From: a virus
Virus record (IMG/VR): IMGVR_UViG_3300045988_075769
Coordinates: 1-58,438 of that record
DNA length: 58,438 bases
Reading direction: 5' to 3' (one strand)
Both the position numbers and the translations under genes were made by a program. Shown piece by piece: positions 48-14,901 of this stretch; the first letter of the stretch is position 1, and each line of letters starts with the position of its first letter. Below the pieces are notes generated by a model. That model worked only from the letters and a program-made list of their open reading frames with translations. It did no database searches and was not told the origin of the DNA.

Positions 48-266
48 GCGGCTCGTGTAGTCTTTCCGCCAGCGTTGCAAGGGCTTAATGCAGAACAGAT
101 AAAAGCTGTGATAAAACGTGCGCCGCTTGGGAGGTATGACCGGAAAATCGCCCGGTTGCGGTACGTTGACCAGCTATGTCAAGTTGATATTGCAGCGCGT
201 GTGCCGTATTGTCGGACATCAATCGGCAATAGGCTGAAAATTATTGACAAAACGCTTGGCGTGTGA
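33..266 (+). CDS. Small HTH protein, sigma-70 region-4-like (candidate late-gene regulator)
   Basis: 77-aa ORF with a GTG start. RLRYVDQLCQVDIAARVPYCRTSIGNRLKIIDKTL resembles a region 4.2 HTH. A terminator follows at 333-370, and the 5' end overlaps the wrap-around ORF 58297->88. Confidence 0.5.
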   Translation: MLPVAAARVVFPPALQGLNAEQIKAVIKRAPLGRYDRKIARLRYVDQLCQVDIAARVPYCRTSIGNRLKIIDKTLGV

Positions 267-332
267 TATAATATTCTTATAATCTAAGTGTATGTAGGAC
301 ACATATTTGAAGCTGATTCTACAAACGCAACA

Positions 333-370
333 AAGCGGCAGGCTATTCCAGAGCTTGCCGCTTTTATTTT
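333..370 (+). terminator. Rho-independent terminator
   Basis: AAGCGGCA(333-340) pairs with TGCCGCTT(356-363), followed by the run TTTTATTTTT. Confidence 0.7.
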
Positions 371-526
371 TGCACGATTTGTGGTATAATAATCTTAACA
401 AATCCACCCGGCCTATCGGAGAAGCGCATTAGGGCGGATATTTGAAAGGCTCCGGCCTTTGTAGAGAGCGGCATTGCCTGTGGGCAGTTCCGCTCTTGAT
501 TTTAGACTTTTCCGTTTTAGCAGCAC

Positions 527-564
527 AAAACCCCCGGTGTTCCGTTTGGAGCATCGGGGGTTTT
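527..564. terminator. Bidirectional hairpin terminator
   Basis: AAAACCCCCG(527-536) pairs with CGGGGGTTTT(555-564). A/T runs flank both sides, and it sits just downstream of minus gene 570-731. Confidence 0.65.
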
Positions 565-569
565 GCTGT

Positions 570-731
570 TTATACAATTCCGTATTTGTGCGCATACTCA
601 AGCAATTTCTTTTTTGCCCTTTCGTGGATATCCTTGGTTTTTTCACAAGGGTTTTGAGTGTAAGTGTAAAAACTTTCTTCTTCAAGATCAGAAAGAAAAT
701 CCAAAACCTTTTGATCAAATAACTCGTTCAT
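570..731 (-). CDS. Hypothetical small acidic protein (53 aa)
   Basis: ATG at 731 is preceded by GGAGG on the minus strand. The longer ORF reaching 815 has no RBS. Confidence 0.5.
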   Translation of the reverse strand: MNELFDQKVLDFLSDLEEESFYTYTQNPCEKTKDIHERAKKKLLEYAHKYGIV

Positions 732-770
732 AATGGTCCTCCAATATTTTGTTTTCCTTGCTGTGATTAT

Positions 771-876
771 AGTATAGCACTGTTTATAGTGTATGTAAAT
801 TGACATTTTCGACAATGTTTACAGTGCTCCATTGTGCATATTTGGCATTATAAACAGTGCTTTTTTGTGCTATACT
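771..876. promoter_or_regulatory. Mirror-symmetric divergent promoter/operator region
   Basis: GTGCTATACT at 867-876 and its reverse complement at 771-780 give outward-facing -10 TATACT boxes. ACAGTGCT occurs at 821-828 and 854-861, with an inverted copy at 776-783. Confidence 0.5.
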
Positions 877-905
877 AAAGAAAACGAAACGGGGGGGTAT
901 CTTTT

Positions 906-1091
906 ATGATTTCTGAAAAGAAAAAAGCATCCAATGCCAAATGGGACAAGAAAAACATGACAAGCTTGGCTTGCCGCGTAAAAAAGGATTACGCGGAAAA
1001 GTTTAAGGCGGCGTGCGCAGAGGCCGGCACGAGTCCGAATTCCGTATTAAAACAGGCGGTCGAAGAATTTTTGCAGGCGCATACAAAATAA
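906..1091 (+). CDS. Ribbon-helix-helix (CopG/Arc-like) DNA-binding protein
   Basis: 61 aa. MTSLACRVKKDYAEKFKAACAEAGTSPNSVLKQAVEEFL fits a beta-strand/helix/helix RHH pattern. The upstream RBS is GGGGGG. Confidence 0.5.
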   Translation: MISEKKKASNAKWDKKNMTSLACRVKKDYAEKFKAACAEAGTSPNSVLKQAVEEFLQAHTK

Positions 1092-1104
1092 TAGTTTAAA
1101 AGCC

Positions 1105-1147
1105 AAGCGCTCATGCGGATTTTTCCGTGTGGGCGCTTTTCTTTTTT
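1105..1147 (+). terminator. Rho-independent terminator
   Basis: AAGCGC(1105-1110) pairs with GCGCTT(1133-1138), followed by TTTTCTTTTTT. Confidence 0.5.
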
Positions 1148-1221
1148 GTCCTTTGTTGTACCTTCGTTGTCTTTCGCTTTTTGCTGACGCGGTACACTGG
1201 TCACATCAGGAGGGATGCATT

Positions 1222-1740
1222 ATGAGCTATTATCCAACACCCGGAGCACCCTACGTTCCGCAGCAGCCTGTCAATCCTTACGGCGGCATGGGCACGGTAG
1301 GCCTTGCCACTTCCCTGCCAAACACGCAGATGCAGCAAGCACAACCGCAGCGTCCGCAGCCGATGAATGGGCAACAGCCTGTTCAGCAGTCGGCACAGGA
1401 TGGCGGCTGGTTGCTTGGCAGACCTGTTTCTAGCAGGGAAGAATTTTTGGCAATACCGTCCGACCTATACGGCAGACCGACCTACTGCCCCGACCTGCGA
1501 AGCGGCGTGATCTACTGCAAGCGGCTGAACCCGGACACCTGTGAATCCTATGTACAGGAGTTTTACAGCCCGGAAGCGTGGCGGCAGATACAAGCGCAAC
1601 AGGCACAGCAGACCGCTGCACCGACACAGCAGTATGTGCCTGTTGAAGAGTATAACGCCCTCGTCCACAGGCTGGATGAACTGGAAAAGTGGCAGAAAAG
1701 CTTTTCTAAGCCCGCTGCCGCAACGAAGAAAGGAGAATAA
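1222..1740 (+). CDS. Hypothetical Q/P-rich protein
   Basis: ATG at 1222 follows AGGAGG (1208-1213). The N-terminal half is P/Q-rich low complexity and the C-terminal part contains Cys residues. Confidence 0.6.
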   Translation: MSYYPTPGAPYVPQQPVNPYGGMGTVGLATSLPNTQMQQAQPQRPQPMNGQQPVQQSAQDGGWLLGRPVSSREEFLAIPSDLYGRPTYCPDLRSGVIYCKRLNPDTCESYVQEFYSPEAWRQIQAQQAQQTAAPTQQYVPVEEYNALVHRLDELEKWQKSFSKPAAATKKGE

Positions 1741-1742
1741 CA

Positions 1743-1994
1743 ATGCCCTCTCCGTTTGATATGATTACGCACAGCCCCATCATGCAGCTTGCAAATCTGG
1801 CTCGCGCCGGGCAGAACCCAATGGGGCTTATCCAGCAGTTAAGCGGGCAGAATGCCCCCATCATGCAGGGTTTGAACTTGATTCAGGGCAAAAACGAAGC
1901 ACAGCTCCGAACGATGGCGCAGAACCTCGCCAAAGAGCGTGGCATTGACCTGAACCAGCTGGCAAGCGTCCTGAACCTGACGCTGCCCCGGTAA
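1743..1994 (+). CDS. Hypothetical protein (83 aa)
   Basis: ORF starts 2 nt after the previous stop, on the same strand within the same block. Confidence 0.55.
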   Translation: MPSPFDMITHSPIMQLANLARAGQNPMGLIQQLSGQNAPIMQGLNLIQGKNEAQLRTMAQNLAKERGIDLNQLASVLNLTLPR

Positions 1995-2116
1995 AGCATC
2001 CCTCTAAGCGAAACGCTTCTCAGTCTTGCGGACTTGATAAAAACCGCTTTTATCTGGCTTCGCCCATCGCACACGGCGGTGGGATAGCATAACGCAAAAC
2101 TGAAAGGAGTTTTGTT

Positions 2117-2989
2117 ATGGACGATTTTGCAACTGGCTATCTGGCTGGGCAGGACGGCGGTAATAACAACGGCGGATTCTTCGGCAACGAGGGTCTGTGG
2201 GCGGTTATCATCCTCGCCATCATCTTCGGCTGGGGCAACTACGGCAACGGGCGCAACGGCAGCGACAACGGTATGGCGAGCTACATCCCGTATCTTGTAG
2301 GCACCGGAGCAAGCGGTCAGGGCGGCGCAGACACCCGTGCGGCACTGTCTGAGGGCTTCTCCCAGCAGGATACCTCCCGTTCTCTGGCGGGCATCCAGAG
2401 CGGCATCTGCTCTCTGGGCTATGACCAGCTGGCACAGATGAACACCCTCAACGCTGCCATTGCGGGCGGCTTTGCTGGTACTAATCAAGCAATCTGTCAG
2501 CTCGGCTACCAGAACGCACAGCTCGTGAACGGTCTGGAACGCAGCGTGTCCAACGGTGACAACGCCATCAGCCTTGCCATCATGCAGGAGGGCAACGCGC
2601 GGCAGGCGGGTCAGACCGCTATCCAGACGCAGCTTGCGTCTTGCTGCTGCGAGAACAAGCAGCTCATCGGCGACCTGAAGTACACCATTGCACAGCAGGA
2701 CTGCGCTACCCGTCAGGCTATCGCAGACAACGCTCGTGCCATCGTGGACAACTGCAACGCCAACTTCCGCAGCATGATGGACTACTTCACGCAGGATAAG
2801 ATCGCCACTCTGACCGCTGAGAACCAGAGCCTGAAGTTTGCCGCTTCTCAGGATCGTCAGAATGCGCTTCTGACCACTGTGATGTCCCAGCAGACCGATA
2901 CCATCCTGAACCGGGTCAATCCTCGTCCGATTCCCGCTTATCAGGTGGCAAACCCCAACGTTGGCGTGAACTGCTGCGGCTGCTGCTAA
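2117..2989 (+). CDS. Cysteine-rich membrane protein ending in CCGCC
   Basis: RBS AAAGGAG. G/N-rich N-terminus, one TM helix (LWAVIILAIIFGWG) and 11 Cys, including the CCC and C-terminal NCCGCC motifs. Confidence 0.7.
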   Translation: MDDFATGYLAGQDGGNNNGGFFGNEGLWAVIILAIIFGWGNYGNGRNGSDNGMASYIPYLVGTGASGQGGADTRAALSEGFSQQDTSRSLAGIQSGICSLGYDQLAQMNTLNAAIAGGFAGTNQAICQLGYQNAQLVNGLERSVSNGDNAISLAIMQEGNARQAGQTAIQTQLASCCCENKQLIGDLKYTIAQQDCATRQAIADNARAIVDNCNANFRSMMDYFTQDKIATLTAENQSLKFAASQDRQNALLTTVMSQQTDTILNRVNPRPIPAYQVANPNVGVNCCGCC

Positions 2990-3074
2990 CCTACACACTC
3001 CCCGATAACACCGGGTGAACCATCGGGGCAGGGGTAAGACACCTCTGCCCCTGATTTTTTAGGAGGAAAATACT

Positions 3075-3446
3075 ATGGCTTGCAAAACAAGCTGCAAACT
3101 CTGCCCGCACTTGGTCATCAGTCAGGCAGTCACGTTTGCCGACGATACTCTGACCATCAACATCCCTGCTGGCGCATACCAGAACGGAGAGAAGTATTGC
3201 ATCGTGGTTGCCCAGAGCATCCCGGACACAACCACCATCAACGCCCCTGTGGTCATTACTATCGGTGCAGGCACGACCGCATACCCTCTGACCGACTGCA
3301 ACTGCGCTCAGGCGACCGCCGAGAGCATCCACACCCGCACCCGCTACGCTACCCGCGTTGCAACGTCTGCGACCGGCACCGGCACGTTCAAATATCTGGG
3401 CTGCTTCTGCCGCTCTCACGCTGGTGCGCCTGCGTCCATTTCTTGA
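3075..3446 (+). CDS. Small Cys-rich beta-rich protein with Cys clusters at both termini
   Basis: RBS AGGAGG. 123 aa with an N-terminal MACKTSCKLC and a C-terminal YLGCFCRSH around a T/V/I/A-rich core. Confidence 0.65.
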   Translation: MACKTSCKLCPHLVISQAVTFADDTLTINIPAGAYQNGEKYCIVVAQSIPDTTTINAPVVITIGAGTTAYPLTDCNCAQATAESIHTRTRYATRVATSATGTGTFKYLGCFCRSHAGAPASIS

Positions 3447-3459
3447 GGAGGTATAGATT

Positions 3460-4098
3460 ATGGGCAAGACTAATTTTCGCCGCATGATGATGCTCCGTGA
3501 CCACGACAAAAACCGTGAGCCGGAACGTGACCGCCTTGAGGAAGAACGTGACCGCAGGGAGCGTGAGATGGAACGCCGTCTGCGTAAGCTGGAAAGCGGC
3601 AACGACCGCTATCCTTACTATCCGCAGGAGGAGAACCGCTACATTGACCCCTACCCTATCCCCCGCTACCCTGACGTTGAGTATGGGCGCAAGATGCCGC
3701 AGATTGGCTTCTCGCAGAGCGGAGACTGGGACAAGCGGTCTGGACAGTATGAGCATGGCGGTGCGGACAGCCGCTCCATCAAGATGCCACGCAAGCACCT
3801 CACCCACGATGAAGCGGAAGAATGGTGCGACAGCATGGTGAACGCTGACGGCACTAAAGGCTGTCACTGGACACTGGAACAGACACAGGACGTTGCCAAA
3901 CAGCGCAATATCACCTGTGACCCGAACGATTTCTGGGCTGTCATGAACATGATGTACTCGGATTATTGCCAAGTCGCAAAGCGCCAGTCCGTTGACACTC
4001 CGGGCTTCTACGCTGACATGGCAAAAGCGTTCCTTGATGACACGGATGCCGCAGATGGTAAGGCGTATCTCTACTGGGATTGCATTACTGATAAGTAA
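3460..4098 (+). CDS. Hypothetical protein with a charged R/E/D N-terminus and a Cys-containing C-terminal domain
   Basis: RBS GAGGAGG. 212 aa, beginning REPERDRLEEERDRREREMERRLRK, followed by a globular C-terminal region. Confidence 0.65.
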   Translation: MGKTNFRRMMMLRDHDKNREPERDRLEEERDRREREMERRLRKLESGNDRYPYYPQEENRYIDPYPIPRYPDVEYGRKMPQIGFSQSGDWDKRSGQYEHGGADSRSIKMPRKHLTHDEAEEWCDSMVNADGTKGCHWTLEQTQDVAKQRNITCDPNDFWAVMNMMYSDYCQVAKRQSVDTPGFYADMAKAFLDDTDAADGKAYLYWDCITDK

Positions 4099-4102
4099 AA
4101 CA

Positions 4103-4146
4103 GAACCCCTGTACAGCCTTGATTGGTTGCACAGGGGTTTGTTCTT
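4103..4146. terminator. Bidirectional terminator between convergent blocks
   Basis: GAACCCCTGT(4103-4112) pairs with ACAGGGGTTT(4131-4140), followed by a T-rich run. Confidence 0.7.
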
Positions 4147-4559
4147 TAGCAAGTTCCGGTATCTCCGATTTTTTGCATAGTGCTTTTAAGATTTGGCACA
4201 TCTTCTTCCGGCATTTTACGTTTGATACCAATAATCGCTTGCGTGATTCCCGCTTTATTTAACTGGTTTACAGACTTACGAAATACAAAATCAATGTTCA
4301 TATTTGTCTTGATTGTTCCGTCATCTTCAAGATAACAGTTTGGAATCCACACGTTTTGATTGCTTCCGTTGATTTTGAAACGCTTTGCTTTGTAGCAACC
4401 GTAGTCCTCTCTTACAATCAGCTCAACAGGAATACCCTTGTAATACTGCGTGTCAGTATTGTACTCTTCAGCCAGTTTTGCTTTACGTTTTGCTACCTCT
4501 GCGTTTATTTTAGCTTGTTCCTCTTTGCTTCTGTGCTTGTGTGGCTTATATGTGCGCAT
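4146..4559 (-). CDS. Hypothetical protein (137 aa), last gene of the rep-par operon
   Basis: ATG at 4559 is preceded by GGAGAG. The 180-aa ORF extension upstream has no RBS. Confidence 0.6.
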   Translation of the reverse strand: MRTYKPHKHRSKEEQAKINAEVAKRKAKLAEEYNTDTQYYKGIPVELIVREDYGCYKAKRFKINGSNQNVWIPNCYLEDDGTIKTNMNIDFVFRKSVNQLNKAGITQAIIGIKRKMPEEDVPNLKSTMQKIGDTGTC

Positions 4560-4578
4560 TTTTCTCTCCTCACATAAA

Positions 4579-4848
4579 TTATTTTTCTTTTGTGTAGTAC
4601 AATTCCATATCTTCCTTGTACATATCAAGTTGTCTTTTGCTATCCATAAGTGTGTTAAAACTAATTCCCGCCGTAAAAGATACAGCAATGGACAAAATCA
4701 AGTGCGTTGCAACCCATTTACCAGCAAAGATAAACGGAATCTGAACTGCTACGGCAAAAGCATCGAGCAAAAGAACGTAAATGCCATGTTTAACCATTTT
4801 CTGTAAACGGATAATACTTCCTTCGTAAAATTCCTTCGACCTCATCAT
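4579..4848 (-). CDS. Small membrane protein (2 predicted TM helices)
   Basis: 89 aa with hydrophobic stretches GIYVLLLDAFAVAVQIPFIFAG and THLILSIAVSFTAGISF. It starts 3 nt after the AAA+ gene stop. Confidence 0.6.
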   Translation of the reverse strand: MMRSKEFYEGSIIRLQKMVKHGIYVLLLDAFAVAVQIPFIFAGKWVATHLILSIAVSFTAGISFNTLMDSKRQLDMYKEDMELYYTKEK

Positions 4849-4851
4849 GCG

Positions 4852-5733
4852 TCAATTCTCCAAGAAATCCTCTTGATTCAGAACTTGATTTACAATTCGT
4901 TCTGTACATTCTTTAATAACAGTAGATGCTGGGACGTGATCTTCATAAGCTATGTTTTCATATTGTGCTCCTGCATATTCAAAGAACCTTTTGGAAAGTA
5001 TTTCTGCATCCGCACGGCACAACGGCTTTAATTCGTATTGCAACGGAAATCTTCTTGTAAGCGCAGGGTCAATCCTATCAAATCGGTTTGTTGTTCCGAT
5101 AATGATGACATTGTTCGGCAATCTATCCATTTCTTGCATAATCGCAATAACAACACGGTTCATTTCCCCAACGTCATCTTTTTGCCCACGAGCCATTCCG
5201 ACCGCATCTATTTCATCAAAACAAAGAACGCAAGGAACGGTTCTCACATAATCAAAAATTCTTGCAAGGTTAGATTGTGTTTGTCCTAAGTGCGAATCAA
5301 CTAGACTTGAAAATTGAATCCTCAAAAACGGAAGTTTTGCTTTATGTGCGATATACCTAGCCAGCATGGTTTTTCCACATCCGCTTTGCCCATAGAGCAT
5401 CAATGCCGGCAAATAAGGAATGCCCATTTCATTCAATTTTTCAGATGCTCGATAAATGGCAACAGTTTTCTGCGTTATACTTTTTTCTTCGTTCCTAAGA
5501 AGGAATCTTGCTTCCGGAAATTCTTCTGTATCCTCTGCGATCAAAAGATGCTGTAAGTTATATGGCAATTCAATAAATTCTCTTTTGCTTTCCAACTTGC
5601 GAAGCATATTTTCTTTAAACCGCTCATCTTTTTTGGATGATATGGAATTCAAAATGGTTTTAACGGCTTTTTGCGCGTTTCGCATATCTCCATCGCAAAC
5701 AAATCGAATAAGGCATCGTTCACTATCATTCAT
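4852..5733 (-). CDS. AAA+ ATPase (classic clade)
   Basis: Walker A GQSGCGKT, Walker B VLCFDEID, sensor-1 IIGTTN and Arg residues PALTRRF. The start overlaps the upstream RHH gene stop by 8 nt. Confidence 0.85.
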   Translation of the reverse strand: MNDSERCLIRFVCDGDMRNAQKAVKTILNSISSKKDERFKENMLRKLESKREFIELPYNLQHLLIAEDTEEFPEARFLLRNEEKSITQKTVAIYRASEKLNEMGIPYLPALMLYGQSGCGKTMLARYIAHKAKLPFLRIQFSSLVDSHLGQTQSNLARIFDYVRTVPCVLCFDEIDAVGMARGQKDDVGEMNRVVIAIMQEMDRLPNNVIIIGTTNRFDRIDPALTRRFPLQYELKPLCRADAEILSKRFFEYAGAQYENIAYEDHVPASTVIKECTERIVNQVLNQEDFLEN

Positions 5734-6298
5734 CTAAGAAATCCTCCAACTCAATCTTCCCTTCTGCCGCCGCCACTGCCAGAGCATACACGAACTGTCC
5801 AATCGTCATTCCGTGCCGTCTTGCTTCACGGTTGATGTACTTGCGCTCTTCCTCGCTCATAAGGATTGTAATGCGTTTTGAACGCTTTCCGTCACCGCTT
5901 GCAACGCCTTGATGCGATTCCGGCATCGGGATTTTTTTCTTTGTCAAACCAGCTTCGGCTAGTGCGCCGGGAACATCACCTTGTTCGATAAGACGTTGAA
6001 CTTCTTTCGCCTGTTTCAGCTTCTTTGGCTTACTTTCGCTGACTATGGCACGGTTTGGCTGTGTTTCGCTGTCTTTGGCTTGCTTCGGCTTAATACTGCT
6101 TAATTCCGCTTCACTTGGCTGTGCATGGCTGTCTGTGGCTTCACTGGGCTTAATCGGTACTTGTTCGGCATTATTCGGCTTTATTTGGCTTACTTCTTCT
6201 TCCTTTGGCTCACTTCGGCTTAATGTCTGCTCCGAAAAAACAGGCTGGAAATCAAAGCCGCCAAGCAAGCCGGATGTTTTTTTGCTGGTTGACTTCAT
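5726..6298 (-). CDS. RHH protein, candidate ParG/omega-like centromere-binding partner of ParA
   Basis: C-terminal KRITILMSEEERKYINREARRHGMTIGQFVYALAVAAA is RHH-like. The N-terminus is a 10-aa-periodic K/P/S/E-rich tail. Confidence 0.55.
   Translation of the reverse strand: MKSTSKKTSGLLGGFDFQPVFSEQTLSRSEPKEEEVSQIKPNNAEQVPIKPSEATDSHAQPSEAELSSIKPKQAKDSETQPNRAIVSESKPKKLKQAKEVQRLIEQGDVPGALAEAGLTKKKIPMPESHQGVASGDGKRSKRITILMSEEERKYINREARRHGMTIGQFVYALAVAAAEGKIELEDFLDE
6011..6230. repeat. About 21 tandem decamers in strict 10-bp phase (NNNNTT[G/C]GCT)
   Basis: Counted directly. 16 of 22 consecutive 10-bp windows from 6011 (16 of the 20 in 6021-6220) end in GCT, 12 of them in GGCT (6030, 6060, 6080, 6090, 6120, 6130, 6140, 6150, 6180, 6190, 6210, 6220). 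Confidence 0.85.
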
Positions 6299-6657
6299 TT
6301 TTCTTTCTCCTTCTTACCGCCTATTCCTAGAACTTTAAGAATTTCTTCCGGGATTCCGCTTGCGGAATTGATTTTTTCTACAATTTCCATCAATTCATCT
6401 TTATTCAGCTGAACGGTTGCTATGTTTTCTTTGGAAGGACTTTCTGGCGCGTCCGTCCAGTATTCTACATCTTGCATATAAAAGTCGGTTTGAATGTTCC
6501 ACCACTGATACTCACCAGTATGAATATTGTAACAATATCTTGCTGTAAGATACGTTCCATATTTCGTATATACTAAAAAAACAAGATTTTCCCTATGATT
6601 GTACGAATCAAGTTTTGGTGGGTCGTATTTCGCACTATGCCATATCCGCTTGTTCAT
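6295..6657 (-). CDS. DUF551-like protein
   Basis: N-terminal WHSAKYDPPKLD ... YWTDAPE pattern is typical of DUF551. Start and stop overlap the neighbouring genes by 4 nt each. Confidence 0.55.
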   Translation of the reverse strand: MNKRIWHSAKYDPPKLDSYNHRENLVFLVYTKYGTYLTARYCYNIHTGEYQWWNIQTDFYMQDVEYWTDAPESPSKENIATVQLNKDELMEIVEKINSASGIPEEILKVLGIGGKKEKEK

Positions 6658-7424
6658 TTTGCATCCCCCTTTACAATCTTCTTTGCTAGTTCTTTGAAAT
6701 CCTCTGCGCTGGTACTCTTTGCCGTGTCACCGCAAAACAGGCTGTGACGCTCTGCCTGTGCCTTGCGAACGCCCATAGACGGTCTAATCTTCACGTCCAA
6801 CAGCCTTGTTCCCATGCTTTGTGCAATCACAGGAAGCTGCTCTACAACCTCTTTGGACAGATTCTCACGGCTCTTGTACTGGTTCAGAAGCAGACCTTCA
6901 ATCTTCAAAGTCGGGTTGAAGTATCTGCGAACGTCACCAATGGTCTGCGAAAGCTGGCTCAAACCAGCAAGTGCATATCGGTCTGCTGTAATGGGCACAA
7001 TGATGCTGTTGGCGGCAATCAGAGCGTTTACAAGCGCAAGACCGAGCTGCGGGGGAGTGTCCAGAACGATGTAATCGTACCGTTCTGACACGGATTCCAG
7101 CGCTTCACGCAGCCGGAAGTTCTTGCCAATGTCCCGGACAAGCTGCTCGTCAATGTCCTTCAATGCGCTGTCTGACGGCAGAATGTCACCAGCTTCACAG
7201 TGCTGTATTCCTTCTTCTACCGTACCCTGCCGGGTCATTACATCAAACAAAGTACACACTTCCTCTGTCTGCGCGCCGTAGGTGTCCGTTGCGTTGCACT
7301 GGGCATCGCAGTCCACCAGCAACACTTTCTTGCCAAGCAACTGCAATGCACCAGCCAGACAGGTGCTTGTGGTAGTCTTTCCTGTGCCGCCCTTCTGGTT
7401 GGCGACAGCTATGATTTTTGCCAT
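6654..7424 (-). CDS. parA: ParA/Soj-type partition ATPase (small, no N-terminal HTH)
   Basis: Deviant Walker A NQKGGTGKTTT, plus LLVDCDAQ and IVLDTPP motifs. 256 aa. Confidence 0.9.
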   Translation of the reverse strand: MAKIIAVANQKGGTGKTTTSTCLAGALQLLGKKVLLVDCDAQCNATDTYGAQTEEVCTLFDVMTRQGTVEEGIQHCEAGDILPSDSALKDIDEQLVRDIGKNFRLREALESVSERYDYIVLDTPPQLGLALVNALIAANSIIVPITADRYALAGLSQLSQTIGDVRRYFNPTLKIEGLLLNQYKSRENLSKEVVEQLPVIAQSMGTRLLDVKIRPSMGVRKAQAERHSLFCGDTAKSTSAEDFKELAKKIVKGDAK

Positions 7425-7426
7425 TT

Positions 7427-7666
7427 TTATTCTCCCCAGTCTATAAAATATCCGTTATAAACAAACTTTTTCGCTGCTTTACCAGCTTCGATTAGAGACT
7501 TCCCGACTTCAATCGCTTCGTCAGGCGTTAGTTCGCTGTAGCTTCTTTGCGGCAAAACCCTTACAGAAGCCTGATTTCCATGATGATTGAACCGAAACTG
7601 ATAATCAAACTTCTTTTCAAGGTCAAGTTCTGCTTTATTCAGAACGGAGTAGGGAACTTTTGCCAT
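7427..7666 (-). CDS. Hypothetical protein (79 aa)
   Basis: In-operon ORF ending 2 nt before the parA start. Confidence 0.55.
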   Translation of the reverse strand: MAKVPYSVLNKAELDLEKKFDYQFRFNHHGNQASVRVLPQRSYSELTPDEAIEVGKSLIEAGKAAKKFVYNGYFIDWGE

Positions 7667-7681
7667 TTTATCACTCTTTCT

Positions 7682-7891
7682 TTATTTTTCTGGTTCTTCA
7701 GGAAGCGGCATCCAATGGGTTACATCTTTTAGAACTTCGTTGTCCTTCCATACATCAACGGAATCCCTTTCCCACCACAACGAACCATATCTTCCTCTTG
7801 CCAAATGCCCAACGTCAATATGCTTTTCCGTAAAAACAATTACATTTTCCCTATAATTTGGCAACTCATCTTTCACACTAATCCATCCCAT
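7682..7891 (-). CDS. DUF551 protein
   Basis: MGWISVKDELP ... THWMPLPEEPE is the canonical DUF551 pattern. ATG at 7891 follows AAAGGAG, and an alternative start lies at 7912. Confidence 0.7.
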   Translation of the reverse strand: MGWISVKDELPNYRENVIVFTEKHIDVGHLARGRYGSLWWERDSVDVWKDNEVLKDVTHWMPLPEEPEK

Positions 7892-7931
7892 TCTTTCTCC
7901 TTTCTGCATCATCTGCTCAATGCGCTACGTC

Positions 7932-9011
7932 TTACTGCTCTTGTAACGCTTCAATGGAATAGAACGCTGGCATATACTTGTCTACGATACCCGCTTTGTC
8001 TACGCTTCTAATCAGATAGCCAACAGGTCTGTCAGGGAACGGAGACCTGTCCAAAGACAAGATGTCCTTATACGCCGCCTTCACCGTGTCGTAAACCGCT
8101 TCTCTGCGTCTCGGCAGCTTGATTTCTGGATGCTCTTTCTTCATCCACTTCTCAACTACCTTCGCCACGTCAATGCAGTCCTGCTTTTCCAATTCGTCAC
8201 ACACAGACCAATCAAAATCATCGTATCCGCTTCTACGGGGCTTTCTCACGGCTTTTTGAGGTTCTACCGGCACTTCGCTTGCCTGAGCTTCAATCAGCGT
8301 CTCAGACGCTTTAATTTTGGGCTTGAACTTGACCGCCACAGCCTTTCGTGCCACAAGAACCGGTTCATAGGTCACTACGATGTCAGACACGGCATTGATT
8401 TCATCTACTGCAACGTCAAGCACTCGTTTGCGGAGATTCTTGTAAACATCGTAGCTTGCTTCCATCGCACCGAGCTGTTCTCTCAGCTTTTTCAGACTGA
8501 TTTCATGCGGCTTGCTGTCCATGTTCAACCAGTCCCGAAGAATCGAATAAAGCAAAATGCTGTATTGAGACTTCATTCTTGACGTGTAACGCAGCCGATA
8601 CCGAACATAGCCGCTTTCAGCAATGTCAAAGAAAATAGGGCGAAGGTCAGGGTTGCAAGTGATTGCCACAACATAAGACCTTGTTTCCGGCACATAGTCC
8701 AGTTTTGCCCTTGTGAAAAGGACAAAGCTCTCAAATGTTCCCTTTTCTTTGTCAATGGGAATCGACACAGTGTTGCCCAAAAAGTGCTTGATCTGCGGCT
8801 CAATCCTTCGTGCATCAAGGCTTTTTAACCCCAGCAGGTCTCTGTACTCTGCCAACGAAAACTCCACACGGCTGCTGTTTGGGTCTCTTGGATTTATTCT
8901 TGACAAGTAAACCTCTAGCAACCGAAGCTCGCCTGCCGTGTAGTCCCTGAACTTTGCCCACACAAGAGATTTACTTTTTTCGACAAGGTTGTTGTCGGAT
9001 ATTTTTTGCAT
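7932..9011 (-). CDS. repB: Rep_3/RepB-family plasmid replication initiator
   Basis: The N-terminal region NLVEKSKSLVWAKFRDYTAGELRLLEVYLSRINPRD...RYRLRYTSRMKSQYSILLYSIL matches the Rep_3 pattern. Iterons lie immediately upstream. Confidence 0.8.
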   Translation of the reverse strand: MQKISDNNLVEKSKSLVWAKFRDYTAGELRLLEVYLSRINPRDPNSSRVEFSLAEYRDLLGLKSLDARRIEPQIKHFLGNTVSIPIDKEKGTFESFVLFTRAKLDYVPETRSYVVAITCNPDLRPIFFDIAESGYVRYRLRYTSRMKSQYSILLYSILRDWLNMDSKPHEISLKKLREQLGAMEASYDVYKNLRKRVLDVAVDEINAVSDIVVTYEPVLVARKAVAVKFKPKIKASETLIEAQASEVPVEPQKAVRKPRRSGYDDFDWSVCDELEKQDCIDVAKVVEKWMKKEHPEIKLPRRREAVYDTVKAAYKDILSLDRSPFPDRPVGYLIRSVDKAGIVDKYMPAFYSIEALQEQ

Positions 9012-9054
9012 CTGTTCGCCTCCTTTTCTAGCCTAAAAGCAGTATATCACATAT

Positions 9055-9534
9055 TGGGGGACAAGTCAATACATTCTGTCCCCCGTGGCTTGTCTTTTTG
9101 TCCCCCATAGGGTCGTCAAAACGTCCCCCATGACTTGTCAAAACGTCCCCCATGCTTTGTCATTTCGTCCCCCATCTACATATTATATATTAAACAAGAA
9201 ATAAACAAGAGGTTAAATATCATCGTTAAATAGGCGATGACGATAATTTTCAACAATTTCTTTATTTTCTCATTCCAGCTTGTGAATAACTCAACCTTTC
9301 ATTTGCTGAATAAAGTCTTTCCAGCAATGATTAGTCTTATCTAACGTGTACAAAAAGTGGATGAAAAACTTTTGAGCCGGTGTTATGGGGGACGGATTGA
9401 CGAGATGCTTAATTGCAAACAACAAATTAACGCCAATCCGTCATTTATTCCGTGCGAATGTTGTCGATTTACAGCCTATGGGGGACGGAATGACAAGGCA
9501 AATTTGCCCGATAGGTGTACAAAAAGTGGATGAA
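9055..9534. other. Plasmid-type origin region (iterons, AT-rich spacer, inverted iteron cores)
   Basis: Inverted cores TGGGGGAC occur at 9055, 9386 and 9479. The tract 9176-9260 is AT-rich. A perfect 20-mer GTGTACAAAAAGTGGATGAA occurs at 9346 and 9515. Confidence 0.7.
9078..9175 (+). repeat. Five direct iterons at 22-23 bp spacing (core GTCCCCCAT)
   Basis: Cores begin at 9078, 9100, 9123, 9145 and 9167. The best-matching units read GTCCCCCATGACTTGTCAAAAC. Confidence 0.85.
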
Positions 9535-9575
9535 CGAGGACAAAATGTTCTGCAAAAACTTCGATAATTCGACCA

Positions 9576-10169
9576 TCAGCCAGTTATATTATTGGGATTC
9601 ACGGTATAAGAATCATTGGACTTCATAGCAGCTTCCGTTCCGGCATCCTGTGCCTGATAGAGAATCTCCATCTTTGGGGCGGTTCCGTTCGGGTCTGGGT
9701 CTGTTCCGGTAGCCTGTGCTATCTCATAGCTGCCCGATACCATCCGGCAGACAGAGACCCTGTCCTTCAATGGCGTATGGAGGTTTGCCAGAACCTCCGT
9801 CAGAACACCTATATGGTCTGAACCGTGATCTCCGTACCGCATATACAACAAGGCATCTATCTCGTAGGAAGAACACTCCATCATGGCATCTATGAGAATC
9901 TTACGCTTTTCCATGTCGAAAAGGTCGTCCTCTAGATGCTCCAGCAATCCAGGATGAATGCAAGCGTCCATATATCGAGCCACTGATACGCCGCAGCAGG
10001 TAAACCAACGCATAGCCATTGGAAAGGAAATGGCTGCCAGACCTTGCTCCCAGTTGGCAATCGTGCCACGATTCACGCCCATCCGTGCTGCCAATTTCTG
10101 CTGGCTCAGACCGGAGCTCATCCGTGCCATCTCTAATGCTTTGGCCGTTCTTACCAAATATTCATCCAT
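9576..10169 (-). CDS. XRE-family HTH regulator with an extended C-terminal domain
   Basis: LSQQKLAARMGVNRGTIANWEQG is an HTH_3 motif. The start at 10169 was chosen because the upstream ORF extension looks non-coding. Confidence 0.65.
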   Translation of the reverse strand: MDEYLVRTAKALEMARMSSGLSQQKLAARMGVNRGTIANWEQGLAAISFPMAMRWFTCCGVSVARYMDACIHPGLLEHLEDDLFDMEKRKILIDAMMECSSYEIDALLYMRYGDHGSDHIGVLTEVLANLHTPLKDRVSVCRMVSGSYEIAQATGTDPDPNGTAPKMEILYQAQDAGTEAAMKSNDSYTVNPNNITG

Positions 10170-10311
10170 AAATTCACGCCATTTCAACAAAATTCTGCAA
10201 AACTGCCGGATTCGACAAGCCAAAAAATGGAAAAAGCTGCTATGGAGAACCAACAGCAGCCTGTGTTATAACTGTATTGTCAAAAAATTCCAAATAGAAA
10301 GGAAACACAAA

Positions 10312-10422
10312 ATGAAAGAAACTGTAATCTGGAACCATGAACGTATGCCGATCATCGATGGAATGCCTGCCAGCGTTCCCGATGGGCAACCACACACACC
10401 TGAACCGTGGGAGGAAAGTTAA
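10312..10422 (+). CDS. Hypothetical micro-protein (36 aa)
   Basis: ATG follows AGAAAGGAAA, and the stop overlaps the next start (TAATG). Confidence 0.35.
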   Translation: MKETVIWNHERMPIIDGMPASVPDGQPHTPEPWEES

Positions 10423-10886
10423 TGAACCGAACCGTAGATGCTCTGATTATTCCATACGCTCGTAGACGGACGCTGGAGCTTGTCCTGAGCCTTTCTGGGT
10501 ACGAAGCTGATAAAGATGCTTACCTCGAAGCAAAAGGCATCCTGGAACGTGCCGTAGCCGCCTTAGACGATGGACGCGACCCGGCAGATAACATCGAACG
10601 CATTGACGGACAGCTTGTGGAACTGCGAAAGGAGAAGAAGATGGACTTTACGAACGGATTCTATAAAACCGAAAACCCTGTTATTCTTGAAGAAGTAAAA
10701 ACCTTCCTCCAGTCAATGGAACGGCGTGGGGCAACCGTAAAAGACTTAGACGATGCCATTGTGCAGCTAAACAATGTTTCGCACAGCATCAGCACAAACG
10801 CTCTCGTCAAAGCAGATGTACTGGACGATTTACCGAATAACCCTTTTCGTTCCATGCTCAACGGAATGCTACAAAGCAAAAGGTAA
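10422..10886 (+). CDS. Hypothetical protein (154 aa)
   Basis: ATG at 10422 is preceded by GGAGGAAAG. Confidence 0.6.
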   Translation: MNRTVDALIIPYARRRTLELVLSLSGYEADKDAYLEAKGILERAVAALDDGRDPADNIERIDGQLVELRKEKKMDFTNGFYKTENPVILEEVKTFLQSMERRGATVKDLDDAIVQLNNVSHSISTNALVKADVLDDLPNNPFRSMLNGMLQSKR

Positions 10887-10997
10887 CTTAAATTTAATGT
10901 GGCTCTTAATCATTGTCATTGCAATTTTTGGTTTCCCCGATGCAAAGTAACGGATGCAAAGAAAACGTTCGATTTTTATGAAGTTGTTCAAACTGCA

Positions 10998-11025
10998 TTG
11001 ACTATACAACTGAAAGATGTATAAT
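10998..11025 (+). promoter_or_regulatory. Sigma-70-type promoter
   Basis: TTGACT (10998-11003), 16-nt spacer, TATAAT (11020-11025). A tandem GATGCAAAG x2 lies just upstream. Confidence 0.5.
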
Positions 11026-11072
11026 CGTATCAAATGAACATTCGTATTTGCTGATCGGGAGGATATGCTGCA

Positions 11073-11174
11073 ATGAGCGAACAAGAAAGAGCTAAGATTG
11101 ACAGGTTTATCGAATGGCTGTTGGAACATCCTGAAAAGATTCCGGCAGCGGAGCAAGCCCTAGACCTAGAATAA
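11073..11174 (+). CDS. Hypothetical micro-protein (33 aa)
   Basis: ATG follows GGGAGGA and the ORF ends at terminator 11177-11229. It is below the ORF-track length cutoff. Confidence 0.4.
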   Translation: MSEQERAKIDRFIEWLLEHPEKIPAAEQALDLE

Positions 11175-11176
11175 CA

Positions 11177-11229
11177 GAAAACCCCTTGCGCAGAGCTACA
11201 CCAGCCCGGCACAAGGGGTTTTTATTTTA
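11177..11229. terminator. Bidirectional terminator
   Basis: AAAACCCCTTG pairs with CAAGGGGTTTT, followed by TTTATTTT. Confidence 0.7.
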
Positions 11230-11234
11230 CCGGG

Positions 11235-11711
11235 TTAATCTTCACAGACTTTCATCAGCTCATTGAACCTAGAAGAATTTGCGCTTACGGTTTCGGATGC
11301 CTTGTGCCCGTCCTCGTAGGTGACATAGAACGTCACATCGGCTTTGGATTTTGCAGTAGCAGAGCCATAAATAGCACCAGGAAGCCCACCAACAGCACCG
11401 CCGACCGCTGTGCGAACAGCAGCGCTTCCTGCTTTCTTACTAACCCCAGAAGCGACAATCTTTGCTTTTATAGGCGTTTTGTACATTTTCTGCTTTAGCT
11501 TATTTTTCTCCATAAAAAGATTGTATTCCTTTTTGCCCTTAAAGAACAAAAACAGACCAACCGCCATACAAATGATAAAGGCAGTGGTTGAATACATCAG
11601 GAGAAGAAAGGAAAACACAATGAAAACCATTCCGAACGAGTACATAAACCTTGCACCCATGTGACTGCTTTTATCGTTAAGAAGCTCTTCTTTGCTGTGC
11701 TTTTTCATCAT
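11235..11711 (-). CDS. Membrane protein (2 TM) with a soluble C-terminal domain
   Basis: TM stretches FGMVFIVFSFLLLMY and AFIICMAVGLFLFF, with a G/A-rich segment. It lies between the two repressor genes. Confidence 0.6.
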   Translation of the reverse strand: MMKKHSKEELLNDKSSHMGARFMYSFGMVFIVFSFLLLMYSTTAFIICMAVGLFLFFKGKKEYNLFMEKNKLKQKMYKTPIKAKIVASGVSKKAGSAAVRTAVGGAVGGLPGAIYGSATAKSKADVTFYVTYEDGHKASETVSANSSRFNELMKVCED

Positions 11712-11861
11712 CCACCTCACTTAAAACCAGTGGTTCTTTCTTTTGCGGTAACGATATTTTCTGCCGTTGCCATATAGCGCACGGTCATTGCCTTTTAACA
11801 AGGCCTGCATGAACCAGAAGCAAAAGGCACATCCACACAATAGGTAATACAAAATCTTACC

Positions 11862-12191
11862 TCACATCTTCTCGATCAGGTTCATCAGCGCTTCACGCTG
11901 TTCCTTTGGCATAGATTCAAGCTTTTTTCTAATCCGCTCCAATGCTGCATCGACTTCACTTTGCGGCTGCTGGGGCGGGTTTTCTTTTTGTTCGCCATTG
12001 AGAAGGTAGTCTACCGATACGTTGAAGTAGGCTGCAATTTTAGAAAGAACCTCTGCGGACAGGCTCTTGGTTCTCCCGGATTTTAACTCGGAAAGAAAAC
12101 TACGGCGAATCCCGATGTTGGCACAAAGAGTTCCGTCTTTAATTCCCTCTTTTTCGCAGAGTGCATGGATGTTGTTGTACAAGTCCGACAT
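11862..12191 (-). CDS. CI-like XRE-family repressor
   Basis: The HTH is GTLCANIGIRRSFLSELKSGR. ATG at 12191 follows GGGAGTG, and the gene is divergent from a Cro-like gene. Confidence 0.75.
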   Translation of the reverse strand: MSDLYNNIHALCEKEGIKDGTLCANIGIRRSFLSELKSGRTKSLSAEVLSKIAAYFNVSVDYLLNGEQKENPPQQPQSEVDAALERIRKKLESMPKEQREALMNLIEKM

Positions 12192-12214
12192 AAGAACACT
12201 CCCATATTTGTGCA

Positions 12215-12350
12215 AGTATACAAATGCACAGAATTTTGTACAAAAGAGTTGACTTGTACAGAAGCCTGTACTATAATACAGACATGGGCAGTACAGAACA
12301 CTGTACGATATGAACTCTCTACACCATTATATTAGTACAGTTTTCCGTAC
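12215..12350. promoter_or_regulatory. Divergent promoters with three GTACAG-N4-C[T/C]GTAC operators
   Basis: Rightward promoter: TTGACT (12249-12254), 17 nt, TATAAT (12272-12277). Leftward promoter: TTGTAC, 17 nt, TATACT (reverse complement of 12215-12220). Operators lie at 12256-12271, 12291-12306 and 12335-12350, with the palindrome TTTTGTACAAAA at 12234-12245. Confidence 0.7.
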
Positions 12351-12384
12351 TTGTCAATAGATTTTAGCAAATGGAGGTGGAATT

Positions 12385-12606
12385 TTGAAAGAAAACTTCC
12401 GTTCTGGCTTTGAGCTGGAAGTGAAGATGAAGCTGTTGCAGCGAGGTATGAAGCAAACGGAGCTGATTCAGGAGGTTCAAAGCGATACTGGATTGTTCCT
12501 TGATGATTCGTACCTCTACAAGATTCTTCGTGGCGAGCGAAAGCCGGAGAAGATTATCCAGAGCATCTGTAAGATTCTGGAAATCGAGCAGAAACCCGAA
12601 AATTAA
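12385..12606 (+). CDS. Cro-like small HTH protein
   Basis: TTG start follows GGAGGTGG. 73 aa containing MKQTELIQEV, in the position expected for Cro. Confidence 0.55.
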   Translation: MKENFRSGFELEVKMKLLQRGMKQTELIQEVQSDTGLFLDDSYLYKILRGERKPEKIIQSICKILEIEQKPEN

Positions 12607-12666
12607 CCTGAACTGTGACAGCGAAAATATTTGAGCATGAAAACACAAAAAAGAAAGAGAGGAAAA

Positions 12667-13419
12667 ATGAACGAAATCGTACTATCCACGAAAAGTGGCG
12701 AACCGGTAGCGTCTAGCCGTCAGGTTGCCGAGAACTTCGGAAAGGAACACAAGGACACTTTGGAGAGTATACGGCAGATTTTGGCGGCGGAAAATTCCGC
12801 CACCAAATCCATGTTTTACGAAACCACGTTTGAGAACAGGGGCAAGCAGTACCCCATGTACCTGATGAACCGTGACGGCTTTACACTGCTGGCTATGGGC
12901 TTTACCGGAAAGGCTGCTCTTGAGTGGAAGCTCAAGTATATCGCAGCATTCAACGAGATGGAGAAGAAGCTGACCGAACAGCCGCAGCTTACCCGCTCGC
13001 AGCTCCTTGCAACTGCATTGATCGCAGCACACGAGGAACTGGAAGAAAAGGACAAGCAGATTGAAACCATGAAGCCGAAAGCGCTTTTCGCTGACGCTGT
13101 GAGCGCAAGCAGCCAAAGCATTCTTGTTGGTGAGATGGCAAAGCTGCTGTCGCAGAACGGCATCCAGATGGGGCAGAACCGCCTGTTCCAGTGGATGCGT
13201 GAGAACGGATACTTGATTAAAGACAAGAAGCGGACGGACTACAATATGCCAACGCAGAAGTCTATGGAACTTCGCTTGTTTGAAATCAAGGAAACGTCCA
13301 TTGCACATTCCGATGGGCACACTTCTATCAATAAGACCCCGAAGGTGACGGGTATCGGTCAAGTCTATTTCGTTAATTTCTTCTTAAAGACGGAGAAGAG
13401 CAAGAAAGCGGAGGGCTGA
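12667..13419 (+). CDS. Rha-family regulator with a KilAC/antirepressor C-terminal domain
   Basis: The N-terminus VASSRQVAENFGKEHKDTLESIR is pRha-like. The C-terminus LFADAVSASSQSILVGEMAKLL..NRLFQWMRENGYL is KilAC-like. Confidence 0.7.
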   Translation: MNEIVLSTKSGEPVASSRQVAENFGKEHKDTLESIRQILAAENSATKSMFYETTFENRGKQYPMYLMNRDGFTLLAMGFTGKAALEWKLKYIAAFNEMEKKLTEQPQLTRSQLLATALIAAHEELEEKDKQIETMKPKALFADAVSASSQSILVGEMAKLLSQNGIQMGQNRLFQWMRENGYLIKDKKRTDYNMPTQKSMELRLFEIKETSIAHSDGHTSINKTPKVTGIGQVYFVNFFLKTEKSKKAEG

Positions 13420-13421
13420 AC

Positions 13422-14384: not shown

Positions 14385-14464
14385 ATACTACGGAAAGCGA
14401 GAAATCCGCTGGCACGGCCGAGAGAAAGACCGTCTAGAACACATACATAATAGAAAGGGTAAAG

Positions 14465-14656: not shown

Positions 14657-14667
14657 GGAGAGAATAG

Positions 14668-14892: not shown

Positions 14893-14901
14893 GGAGAACC
14901 A

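Follow-up and report, generated by a model that had tools for sequence, protein, structure and literature searches.

We analysed a viral DNA of 58,438 nucleotides (IMG/VR record IMGVR_UViG_3300045988_075769; the whole stretch is called the window below) and found that five of its genes, which we denote g1 to g5 (positions 1222-4098), belong to a conserved cassette. The cassette recurs in 90 loci, in prophages of Clostridia, in phages of C. perfringens, Butyrivibrio and Bacteroides, and in a crAss-like phage. We put forward, as a tentative reading, that the cassette may be a mobile, self-contained accessory unit in which a Cys- or metal-stapled stalk (g3) and a knob (g4) stand on the cytoplasmic membrane, probably serving phage-phage exclusion or the control of an envelope event.

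A conserved cassette of five core genes

Five co-directional open reading frames (ORFs) were confirmed in the window:

1222-1740 (+): g1, 172 aa, counted from the ATG behind a strong AGGAGG ribosome-binding site
1743-1994 (+): g2, 83 aa, M/Q/N-rich and apparently helical
2117-2989 (+): g3, 290 aa, 11 Cys
3075-3446 (+): g4, 123 aa, 8 Cys, starting MACKTSCKLC and ending ...YLGCFCRSH...
3460-4098 (+): g5, 212 aa, 35 K+R and 42 D+E residues

Identical gene calls in sister phage-plasmids and the many conserved homologues of each protein argue that g1 to g5 are real genes and not chance ORFs. An earlier note on this DNA, made from its letters alone, had described five co-directional genes between two terminators, and both hairpins (1105-1138 and 4099-4143) are real. 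Its outline of the proteins, with a P/Q-rich first, an 83-aa second, a Cys-rich third of 290 aa and a charged fifth of 212 aa with a Cys-containing C-terminal domain, agrees with our results. In 10 diverged five-gene cassettes the mean identity was 62% for g4, 50% for g3, 40% for g2, 37% for g1 and 35% for g5, making g4 the most conserved member.

Scans of the five proteins and their alternative members against Pfam, NCBIfam, PHROGs and PADLOC returned nothing beyond DUF7841 and PHROGs without an assigned function. No Pfam, NCBIfam or PADLOC family was matched by g1 to g4, the PADLOC scan of ten cassette proteins gave nothing below E = 0.02, and profile searches of PDB sequences with alignments of g1, g3, g4, the alternative fourth gene (alt4), g5 and a Cys-peptidase-like protein found nothing significant. 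The cassette proteins belong to Pfam DUF7841 and to PHROGs 16490, 21718, 20016, 3754, 1233 and 22984, all annotated as unknown function. The earlier note was thus right that the genes have no recognisable phage role, though g3, g1 and g5 do fall into families (phrog_16490, phrog_21718 and DUF7841, respectively). Sequence inspection revealed neither a signal peptide nor a transmembrane (TM) segment in g1, g2, g4 and g5.

Distribution and gene slots

A genome scan with one genome per species yielded 127 relatives, from which 80 loci were kept, mostly from genomes and metagenome-assembled genomes of Oscillospiraceae, Lachnospiraceae, Acutalibacteraceae and Bacilli. A tblastn search with g3 matched 33 phage records, including Butyrivibrio virus Ceridwen, C. 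perfringens phage XP41-N3, Bacteroides phage C3_41T2LP and crAss-like phage cr116_1. The plasmid collection held a single distant g3 homologue, on a Vescimonas megaplasmid. The carriers are tailed phages of strictly anaerobic gut bacteria, and both temperate and virulent phages are among them.

The genes of the cassette follow one order, namely g1, g2, g3, a hairpin, a small all-beta Cys protein and a charged disordered protein. This synteny, with either g4 or alt4 in fourth place and either g5 or an R/D/Y-rich intrinsically disordered protein in fifth, spans prophages of Oscillospiraceae, Lachnospiraceae and Bacilli, C. perfringens phages, Ceridwen and Dulem viruses. The same order is found in Ceridwen, XP41-N3, HMD-PC1, Dulem virus 36 and an 85-kb uncultured phage, where a P/Q/Y-rich g1-like protein, a small M/Q-rich g2-like protein and a g3-like protein are followed by a Cys-containing beta-rich protein of ~125-150 aa. 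Clustering of the neighbours over the 90 loci gave the following slots:

g3 slot: phrog_16490, 90 loci
g1 slot: phrog_21718, 78 loci
Fourth-gene slot: g4 family, 34 loci
Fourth-gene slot: alt4, an unrelated all-beta family (phrog_20016), 46 loci
Fifth-gene slot: R/D/Y/E-rich disordered protein, 65 loci
Fifth-gene slot: g5 with DUF7841, 16 loci
Optional, upstream of g1: Cys-peptidase-like protein of ~126 aa (phrog_3754) with invariant Cys17, His97 and Asp108, 25 loci (e.g., L038:1719-2096 and L001:4635-5009)
Optional, after the fifth gene: HExxH peptidase of 106 aa, weakly SprT/M78-like, 24 loci
Optional, after the fifth gene: helical protein of 109 aa, 13 loci
Optional, directly upstream of the cassette: small sigma-region-4-like regulator, 25 loci

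The sequence of the ~126-aa protein suggests a small papain-like peptidase. The cassette of the window carries neither this gene nor the HExxH gene. Small ORFs with TM or coiled-coil segments (cluster 12) are interleaved in nine loci. Two Bacteroides-infecting phages, a Bacteroides phage and a crAss-like phage, have another layout, which g3 leads; after it come genes for a Cys-containing beta-rich protein, a protein with a coiled coil and a mini-protein rich in R/E/D, then a separate DUF7841 gene and an HExxH peptidase gene.

g3, a putative membrane-anchored stalk

The g3 family is large, with at least 7,127 protein clusters at 90% identity, and the window protein matches phrog_16490 with E = 5.3e-38; no NCBIfam family was matched at E <= 1. 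Its G/N-rich N-terminus forms an acidic tail (~30 residues in the family), followed by the hydrophobic segment LWAVIILAIIFGW (residues 27-39), a W-flanked core of 13-15 residues in the family that lies between Gly-rich linkers. Among 85 homologues, the net charge flanking this segment was -2.2 on the N side and about 0 on the C side, and the number of Cys residues ranged from 8 to 19. After the Gly-rich linker comes an A/N/Q-rich amphipathic-helical region containing C-LGY repeats, whose number varies across the family and which occupy residues 96-109 and 125-138 in the window. Hydrophobicity in residues 85-262 has a period of 3.6 residues (z about 5), which argues for amphipathic helices and not for a strict heptad coiled coil. 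Family motifs include a QDKIAxLxAENQxLKxAASQ helix, a PxPAYxVPNP hinge and a nearly invariant CCC (176-178), and the C-terminal Cys cluster has NCCGCC in the window and is of the CxCxC type in the family.

One lead for the G-rich/hydrophobic/G-rich N-terminus, YjcZ-like tiny TM sporulation proteins, gave no NCBIfam/TIGRFAM match, and the likeness is compositional only. As a separate observation, a sister phage-plasmid (L095:1699-3066) carries a 455-aa ORF (P0184) that joins a tail-fibre-like N-terminal part with collagen repeats to the C-terminal half of g3 (96% identical). This ORF stands in place of the regulator, the ribbon-helix-helix (RHH) gene, g1, g2 and the N-terminal half of g3, and g4 and g5 are kept downstream. 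P0184 may be a real recombinant or an assembly chimera of a singleton contig.

g4 and the alternative fourth gene

The g4 family comprises at least 2,107 clusters at 90% identity and 571 at 50% identity, nearly all of them stand-alone proteins of 100-180 aa. Among its best 150 representatives, 149 were 91-180 aa long and one was 243 aa, the match usually began at or near residue 1, and none was fused to a fibre. The motif C-x3-C-x2-C always stands at the extreme N-terminus of a stand-alone protein. C7, C10 and P50 are invariant in the family alignment and C42 is nearly so; C75/C77 and C110/C112 are not conserved. The earlier description of a beta-rich protein with Cys clusters at both termini therefore fits the window sequence, whereas the C-terminal pair is not a family feature. 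No Pfam family was found at E <= 1 and no meaningful NCBIfam family.

A confident AlphaFold2 model built from a diversified 62-sequence alignment has eight strands (pLDDT 83.7, pTM 0.75); an earlier model from 26 close homologues (pLDDT 51.5) was discarded. Foldseek searches with this model found nothing in the PDB at E <= 0.001, the best match being a baseplate/tail-fibre chain of phage Pa193 (9b45_2; E = 0.05, query TM-score (TMq) 0.43). In the BFVD, the model matched its own family and then the C-terminal parts of many predicted phage fibres of the T7-type, collagen-repeat and tail-collar kinds (E 2.6e-4 to 1e-2, TMq about 0.5). It also matched a 294-aa crAss-like "DUF7841 domain-containing protein" (TMq 0.60, root-mean-square deviation 2.0), which may be a g4-like fold fused to the g5 domain.

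The other occupant of the fourth slot, alt4, is also an all-beta family. A homology between alt4 and g4 was considered and showed no support by hhalign, so the two families are analogous and not demonstrably homologous. Two of 33 alt4 members have weak, below-threshold matches to BclA_C (PF18573; best E = 0.011). We rejected a reading of the CxxxCxxC motif of g4 as that of a precursor of a ribosomally synthesized and post-translationally modified peptide or as a radical S-adenosylmethionine (SAM) motif, since the protein would be too small, a maturase gene is missing next to it, and Dulem-type members differ in motif spacing.

g1, g2 and g5

The product of g1 begins with a P/Q/Y-rich low-complexity region (23 Q and 20 P in the whole protein), continues with a conserved globular core of ~60 aa (RPVxSxEE...IYxK...G...Y) and ends in an amphipathic helix. 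It matches phrog_21718 (E = 1.3e-9) and nothing in Pfam or the PDB; in the 78 loci that carry it, the gene nearly always lies two genes upstream of g3. A 177-aa protein of the Bacteroides phage cassette was considered as a relative of g1 and shows no detectable relationship. Since g2 starts 2 nt past the stop codon of g1, its translation is probably coupled to that of g1. Two subfamilies fill the g2 slot, in 43 and 30 loci, the second corresponding to phrog_22984.

A short motif at the N-terminus of g5 (xKMMLM) is conserved; behind it come a disordered region rich in R/E/D/Y and, at residues 109-202, the Cys-containing DUF7841 domain (92 bits against a gathering cut-off of 25.2, E = 3.9e-26). 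Bacteroides phage C3_41T2LP has DUF7841 as a separate gene of its cassette (59 bits, E = 5e-16). A literature search for DUF7841 found no paper.

A conserved hairpin within the cassette and its candidate regulators

The following hairpins and small regulatory genes border or divide the cassette in the window:

33-266 (+): small ORF of 77 aa, helix-turn-helix (HTH)/sigma-region-4-like; PHROG 36 (transcriptional regulator) E = 0.003, phrog_3512 (sigma factor) E = 0.21
906-1091 (+): RHH gene, 61 aa; Pfam ParG E = 3.9e-5, Arc-like repressor PHROGs ~2e-4
1105-1138 (+): terminator hairpin with T-run, 15-bp stem, minimum free energy (MFE) -28.1 kcal/mol, z = -7.1; closes the RHH gene upstream of g1
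3025-3060 (+): intra-cassette hairpin (3025-3051) with T-run in the g3-g4 gap, z = -3.7
4099-4143 (no strand assigned): terminator hairpin between g5 and a convergent gene at 4146-4688, MFE -26 kcal/mol, z = -3.5

The hairpin between g3 and g4 had been missed in the earlier note. In 54 non-redundant loci, the spacer between g3 and the fourth gene (median 83 nt) holds a GC-rich hairpin with a mean folding z-score of -3.8; a stem of at least 8 bp with at least five GC pairs was present in 69% of these spacers, compared with 6% of the g2-g3 spacers, and half of them also contained a T-run. The hairpin is kept across very diverged cassettes (2990-3074 in the window; L002, L007-L010 and L015-L089), and some lineages have three consecutive hairpins in this spacer (e.g., L033, L038 and L079). 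The gap between the fourth and fifth genes is short (median 11 nt; 13 nt in the window), a tight coupling. The conserved hairpin thus splits the cassette into g1-g2-g3 and g4-g5 by a terminator or attenuator; it could act as an attenuator or as an mRNA-stabilizing element. Rfam scans of the block and of the multi-hairpin spacer found no family.

Two upstream regulators had been suggested for the block. The RHH gene was borne out and is also present in two sister elements (L003 and L004), whereas the sigma-region-4-like ORF at 33-266 has a weak match (PHROG E = 0.003). In 25 other loci the cassette is immediately preceded by a small sigma-region-4-like regulator, behind which come a terminator and a -10-like box. 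The ORF at 33-266 did not match hidden Markov models built from these 25 genes; it is a possible regulator, and its link to the block is weak in the window. It should also be noted that Rfam ctRNA_pGA1 matched positions 1076-1151 (26.9 bits against a gathering threshold of 45, E = 0.024). The match overlaps the terminator of the RHH gene and is probably just this hairpin, although a replication-control RNA would fit a phage-plasmid.

Insertion sites

Among the three nearest upstream ORFs (~62 loci), endolysin domains (Amidase_2, CHAP, PG_binding, GH25, M23, M15 and Amidase_3) were the commonest, followed by Phage_min_cap2 and host genes. Integrases, HTH repressors, dUTPase, phage scaffold proteins and NrdD/NrdG were found downstream. 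One cassette forms the last segment of a prophage beside host genes and, once the prophage is excised, comes right behind the integrase. A second is flanked by DnaB/Metallophos and Erf/SSB genes, and that of Dulem virus 36 comes directly after the receptor-binding protein gene. These variable junctions, together with the cassette's own terminators and often its own regulator, suggest a mobile accessory unit that settles at several permissive sites.

Close relatives of carrier phages that do not have the cassette also mark it as accessory. One such comparison is that of vB_CpeS-17DYC with phiCP13O, which share only 70% coverage (PMC10353432); another is with the crAss-like phages, of which a single genome (two records) was a carrier among the phage records matched. 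An integrated small virus or satellite was considered and rejected, for no capsid, replication or integrase gene travels with the cassette. As a side observation, several phages (L011-L090) have genes for the anaerobic ribonucleotide reductase NrdD, with its radical-SAM activase, and for dUTPase among the first three ORFs that follow the cassette.

Proposed mechanism

In the model that we tentatively favour, g3 would insert into the cytoplasmic membrane so that its short acidic N-tail faces outward and the large Cys-rich domain lies in the cytoplasm, and g4 would dock on g3 as a knob through shared Cys/metal sites (Zn or iron-sulfur (Fe-S)) or disulfides. The low-complexity proteins g1, g2 and g5 would be assembly or adaptor factors, and the intra-cassette hairpin would set the ratio of stalk to knob. 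The complex would act at the inner face of the membrane during phage development in a non-essential, competitive function, the likeliest roles being to bar the entry of DNA from superinfecting phages or to gate lysis or egress.

A cytoplasmic location of the Cys-rich domains is suggested by partners without export signals, by an N-tail of g3 whose shortness and acidity suit an N-out orientation, and by the composition of exported Firmicutes proteins, from which Cys is reportedly strongly depleted. We infer that the complex is not a spore or cell-surface appendage. If the clustered Cys residues are metal or Fe-S ligands or latent cross-links, this would explain why the cassette occurs only in phages of anaerobes. 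Of the possible roles, a competitive one at the membrane (superinfection exclusion, host take-over or envelope gating) stands first in our ranking, given the moron-like, lifestyle-independent distribution and the membrane anchoring. An accessory role in lysis or egress stands second in view of the frequent adjacency to lysins, and a virion or ejected-cargo role third in view of the fibre-like fold and the placements in head and tail modules.

Several points weigh against this model. The hydrophobic anchor of g3 is short, so g3 might be monotopic, and the charge bias around it is modest. The C-tail of g3 showed no covariation with the type of fourth gene. Genes in an arms race are not typically as strongly conserved as g4. 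The known superinfection-exclusion proteins are each encoded by one small gene, whereas the cassette has 5-8 genes including peptidases and disordered proteins, and PADLOC found nothing for its proteins. About one-third of the loci have the cassette right after lysis genes, which fits a lysis role equally well, and ~6 loci lie inside the head module, which fits a role in the virion or its assembly.

A more far-reaching version of the model is unlikely: the cassette would encode a new structure in infected anaerobes, a membrane-anchored array or lattice of stalks and knobs that is stapled by metals or disulfides, nucleated by the low-complexity proteins, run by its own sigma-like regulator, and organizes events at the cytoplasmic membrane. 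Such an array might serve, for example, in virion assembly or egress, in the sequestration of a conserved host factor, or in redox or oxygen sensing through Fe-S Cys clusters.

Alternative explanations

A somewhat less probable explanation than the stalk-and-knob model is that the cassette is an accessory to lysis or egress, with g3 as a bitopic protein like a class-III holin or an antiholin and soluble partners that tune or complete the disruption of the envelope. The predominance of endolysin domains upstream fits this explanation, as do the lysin adjacency in Ceridwen and crAss-like cr116_1, the position of the window cassette 1.4 kb downstream of a GH25 lysin and holins, and the small TM or coiled-coil ORFs interleaved in nine loci. 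However, the cassette of XP41-N3-like phages, L093 and C3_41T2LP is surrounded by genes for replication and recombination, a long way from those for lysis. Holin candidates are already present in the window, g1 to g5 match no holin or spanin family in Pfam or PHROGs, Gram-positive hosts need no spanin, and its own terminators and regulator set the cassette apart from the lysis operon. A spanin was specifically considered and rejected, as the hosts are mostly monoderm and no lipoprotein partner, embedded or adjacent, is visible.

The cassette might instead encode a virion-associated structure or ejected cargo, with g3 as the stalk and g4 as the knob of an auxiliary fibre. Disordered proteins and peptidases would then be packaged or ejected, and g3 would enter the target membrane through its hydrophobic segment upon infection. 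We consider this unlikely. The fold of g4 does resemble the distal domains of tail fibres (BFVD E 1e-4 to 1e-2; Pa193 chain in the PDB), alt4 has its weak BclA_C matches, and depositors annotated the g3 homologues of Bacteroides phages as "viral fiber" or "spike". Moreover, six loci lie between Phage_min_cap2 and a scaffold gene, the Dulem virus 36 cassette follows the receptor-binding protein, P0184 joins a collagen-repeat fibre to g3, and in the window the block shares its high GC content with the tail-fibre/lysis segment. Yet the virion architectures of the carriers are unrelated (sipho-like and crAss-like), and many copies of the cassette lie in an early or lysogeny region or at the border of a prophage. 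In addition, g4 is unusually conserved whereas receptor-binding tips are usually hypervariable, it stands alone in the best 150 family members, and P0184, being a singleton contig, may be chimeric. A literature search by carrier-phage name found no virion-proteomics or functional paper. Of a fibre-like accessory module, as proposed earlier, only a weaker form stands, in the likeness of g4 to fibres in the BFVD (TM-score about 0.5) and the weak BclA_C matches of alt4.

We find it still more doubtful that the cassette is a moron for anti-phage defence, anti-defence or a toxin or bacteriocin with no structural role. Its moron-like positions, own regulator and terminators, associated peptidases (Cys-peptidase-like in 25 loci, HExxH in 24) and presence in both temperate and virulent phages would suit such a moron, but PADLOC gave no match, the core proteins g1 to g5 have fibrous or low-complexity character in place of enzymatic effector domains, and a bacteriocin would lack a secretion signal here.

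Remodelling of the host cell or spore surface by disulfide-crosslinked proteins like those of Ena, coat or exosporium, which the earlier note had raised as one hypothesis, is very improbable: despite coat-like compositions (Cys-rich, G/N-rich and Q/P-rich, with R/D/Y/S repeats in the fifth-gene family), the likewise signal-less coat proteins made in the mother cell, the BclA_C matches of alt4 and the many sporulating Clostridia among the hosts, no DUF3992, Ena or coat match was found by sequence or among the best 50 PDB fold matches of g4, the C-terminal Cys residues of g4 are not conserved, and the carriers include virulent phages, phages isolated on the non-sporulating Butyrivibrio fibrisolvens and Bacteroides uniformis, and a crAss-like phage.

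Genomic context in the window

An exact 47-bp direct repeat at the termini of the window (1-47 and 58392-58438) indicates a circularly assembled complete genome of 58,391 bp, and sister contigs of 56-58 kb with Rep3 and ParA beside the same five genes indicate that this genome is a phage-plasmid. Because the genome is circular, the block is situated ~1.4 kb downstream of the endolysin and holin genes; minus-strand, plasmid-type genes follow it:

56895-57575: GH25 endolysin, upstream of the block across the circular junction
Ending at 58286: holin candidates, between the endolysin and the block
4146-4688 (-): gene of 180 aa, phrog_7070 (unknown function), E = 1e-33, convergent with the block
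4852-5733 (-): AAA+ ATPase of 293 aa, Pfam AAA E = 8e-32, phrog_3757

The GC content of the block (0.55-0.58) exceeds that of its flanks (0.39-0.45). Values of 0.55-0.59 are common to the distal tail-fibre gene, the lysin and holins and the cassette (55001-58438 and 1001-4100), compared with 0.39-0.53 in the rest of the genome, which suggests that the high-GC segments were acquired from, or adapted to, a higher-GC background.

In sister elements, a Bro-N protein occupies the position of the window's minus-strand genes beside the block. Between holins and cassette, sister phage-plasmids also encode a protein of 84 aa that has a Pfam Sequestin domain (L003:7350-7604); this gene is absent from the window, where only a 75-aa ORF (58252..88) spans the junction. 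The ~650 bp at 240-900 are poor in ORFs. A perfect sigma-70 promoter (TTGACA-17-TATAAT with TG, 244-272) reads into two strong terminator hairpins there (332-364 and 526-565), and positions 799-771 form a minus-strand promoter. Small RNAs or a control region of the phage-plasmid may reside in this stretch; the Rfam matches within it were all sub-threshold.

Significance

None of the 5-8 gene families of the cassette has a characterized homologue, and its component families exist only as DUFs or PHROGs of unknown function. The cassette is common to thousands of gut phage genomes, across phages of Firmicutes and Bacteroides and across temperate and virulent lifestyles. Its conserved synteny, internal attenuator, dedicated regulator and strongly conserved g4 argue for a real, selected function. 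The cassette therefore offers a well-defined entry point into the "dark matter" of gut phages, and since three carriers are culturable (Ceridwen, C3_41T2LP and the C. perfringens XP41-N3 group), its function is directly testable. Should the Cys clusters bind metals or Fe-S, the cassette would represent anaerobe-specific phage biology. If the stalk-and-knob array were true, it would be a new class of phage machinery that extends from Clostridia phages to crAss-like phages.

Comparison with known systems

The cassette could not be assigned to any of the characterized systems with which it was compared, and we therefore rate it as lying outside the known kinds of phage systems; its eventual function may belong to a familiar category, such as exclusion, lysis control or a virion accessory. 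The family records of DUF7841 and the PHROGs mention neither the cassette nor its synteny.

Like Ena subunits (DUF3992, Bacillus cereus group), g4 is a small, beta-rich protein (~120 aa) that lacks a signal peptide and has Cys residues close to its N-terminus. However, it matches neither Pfam DUF3992 nor an Ena fold in the PDB, only its N-terminal CxxC is conserved, and it is encoded by phages, including those of non-sporulating hosts. Compared with the distal domains of tail fibres and of collagen-like fibres (BclA_C/C1q-like knobs), the g4 model aligns weakly (TM-score about 0.5, E 1e-4 to 1e-2) with the C-terminal parts of predicted phage fibres. Unlike fibre tips, g4 stands alone, has no significant PDB match and is far more conserved, and its cassette is not confined to the tail module. 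A membrane anchor, such as that of its putative partner g3, is found in no known tail fibre. Tail-tip proteins of the lambda gpL type, with their Cys/Fe-S metal sites, provide another parallel to g4.

With respect to lysis proteins, g3 resembles the T4 holin T (with RI/RIII) and the i-spanin Rz in having an N-terminal anchor, a large helical domain with Cys, soluble partners and often a position near the endolysin. The cassette differs from them in lacking any sequence relationship, in its mostly Gram-positive hosts, in Cys domains that are probably cytoplasmic, and in often being far from lysis genes. XepA/YomS and XhlA of PBSX and SPbeta are likewise encoded next to holin and lysin in Firmicutes phages and are small beta-sandwich or membrane-associated coiled-coil proteins, but XepA and YomS are not among the best 50 PDB matches of g4, and no Pfam XhlA match was found.

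Finally, although the cassette comprises 5-8 genes with a beta knob, disordered proteins and peptidases where the exclusion proteins HK97 gp15, lactococcal Sie2009 and T4 Imm are single small proteins, and although no homology to them was found, it resembles these systems in being a membrane-anchored accessory that is located at the ends of late operons, near integrases or in early regions, in temperate and virulent phages alike.

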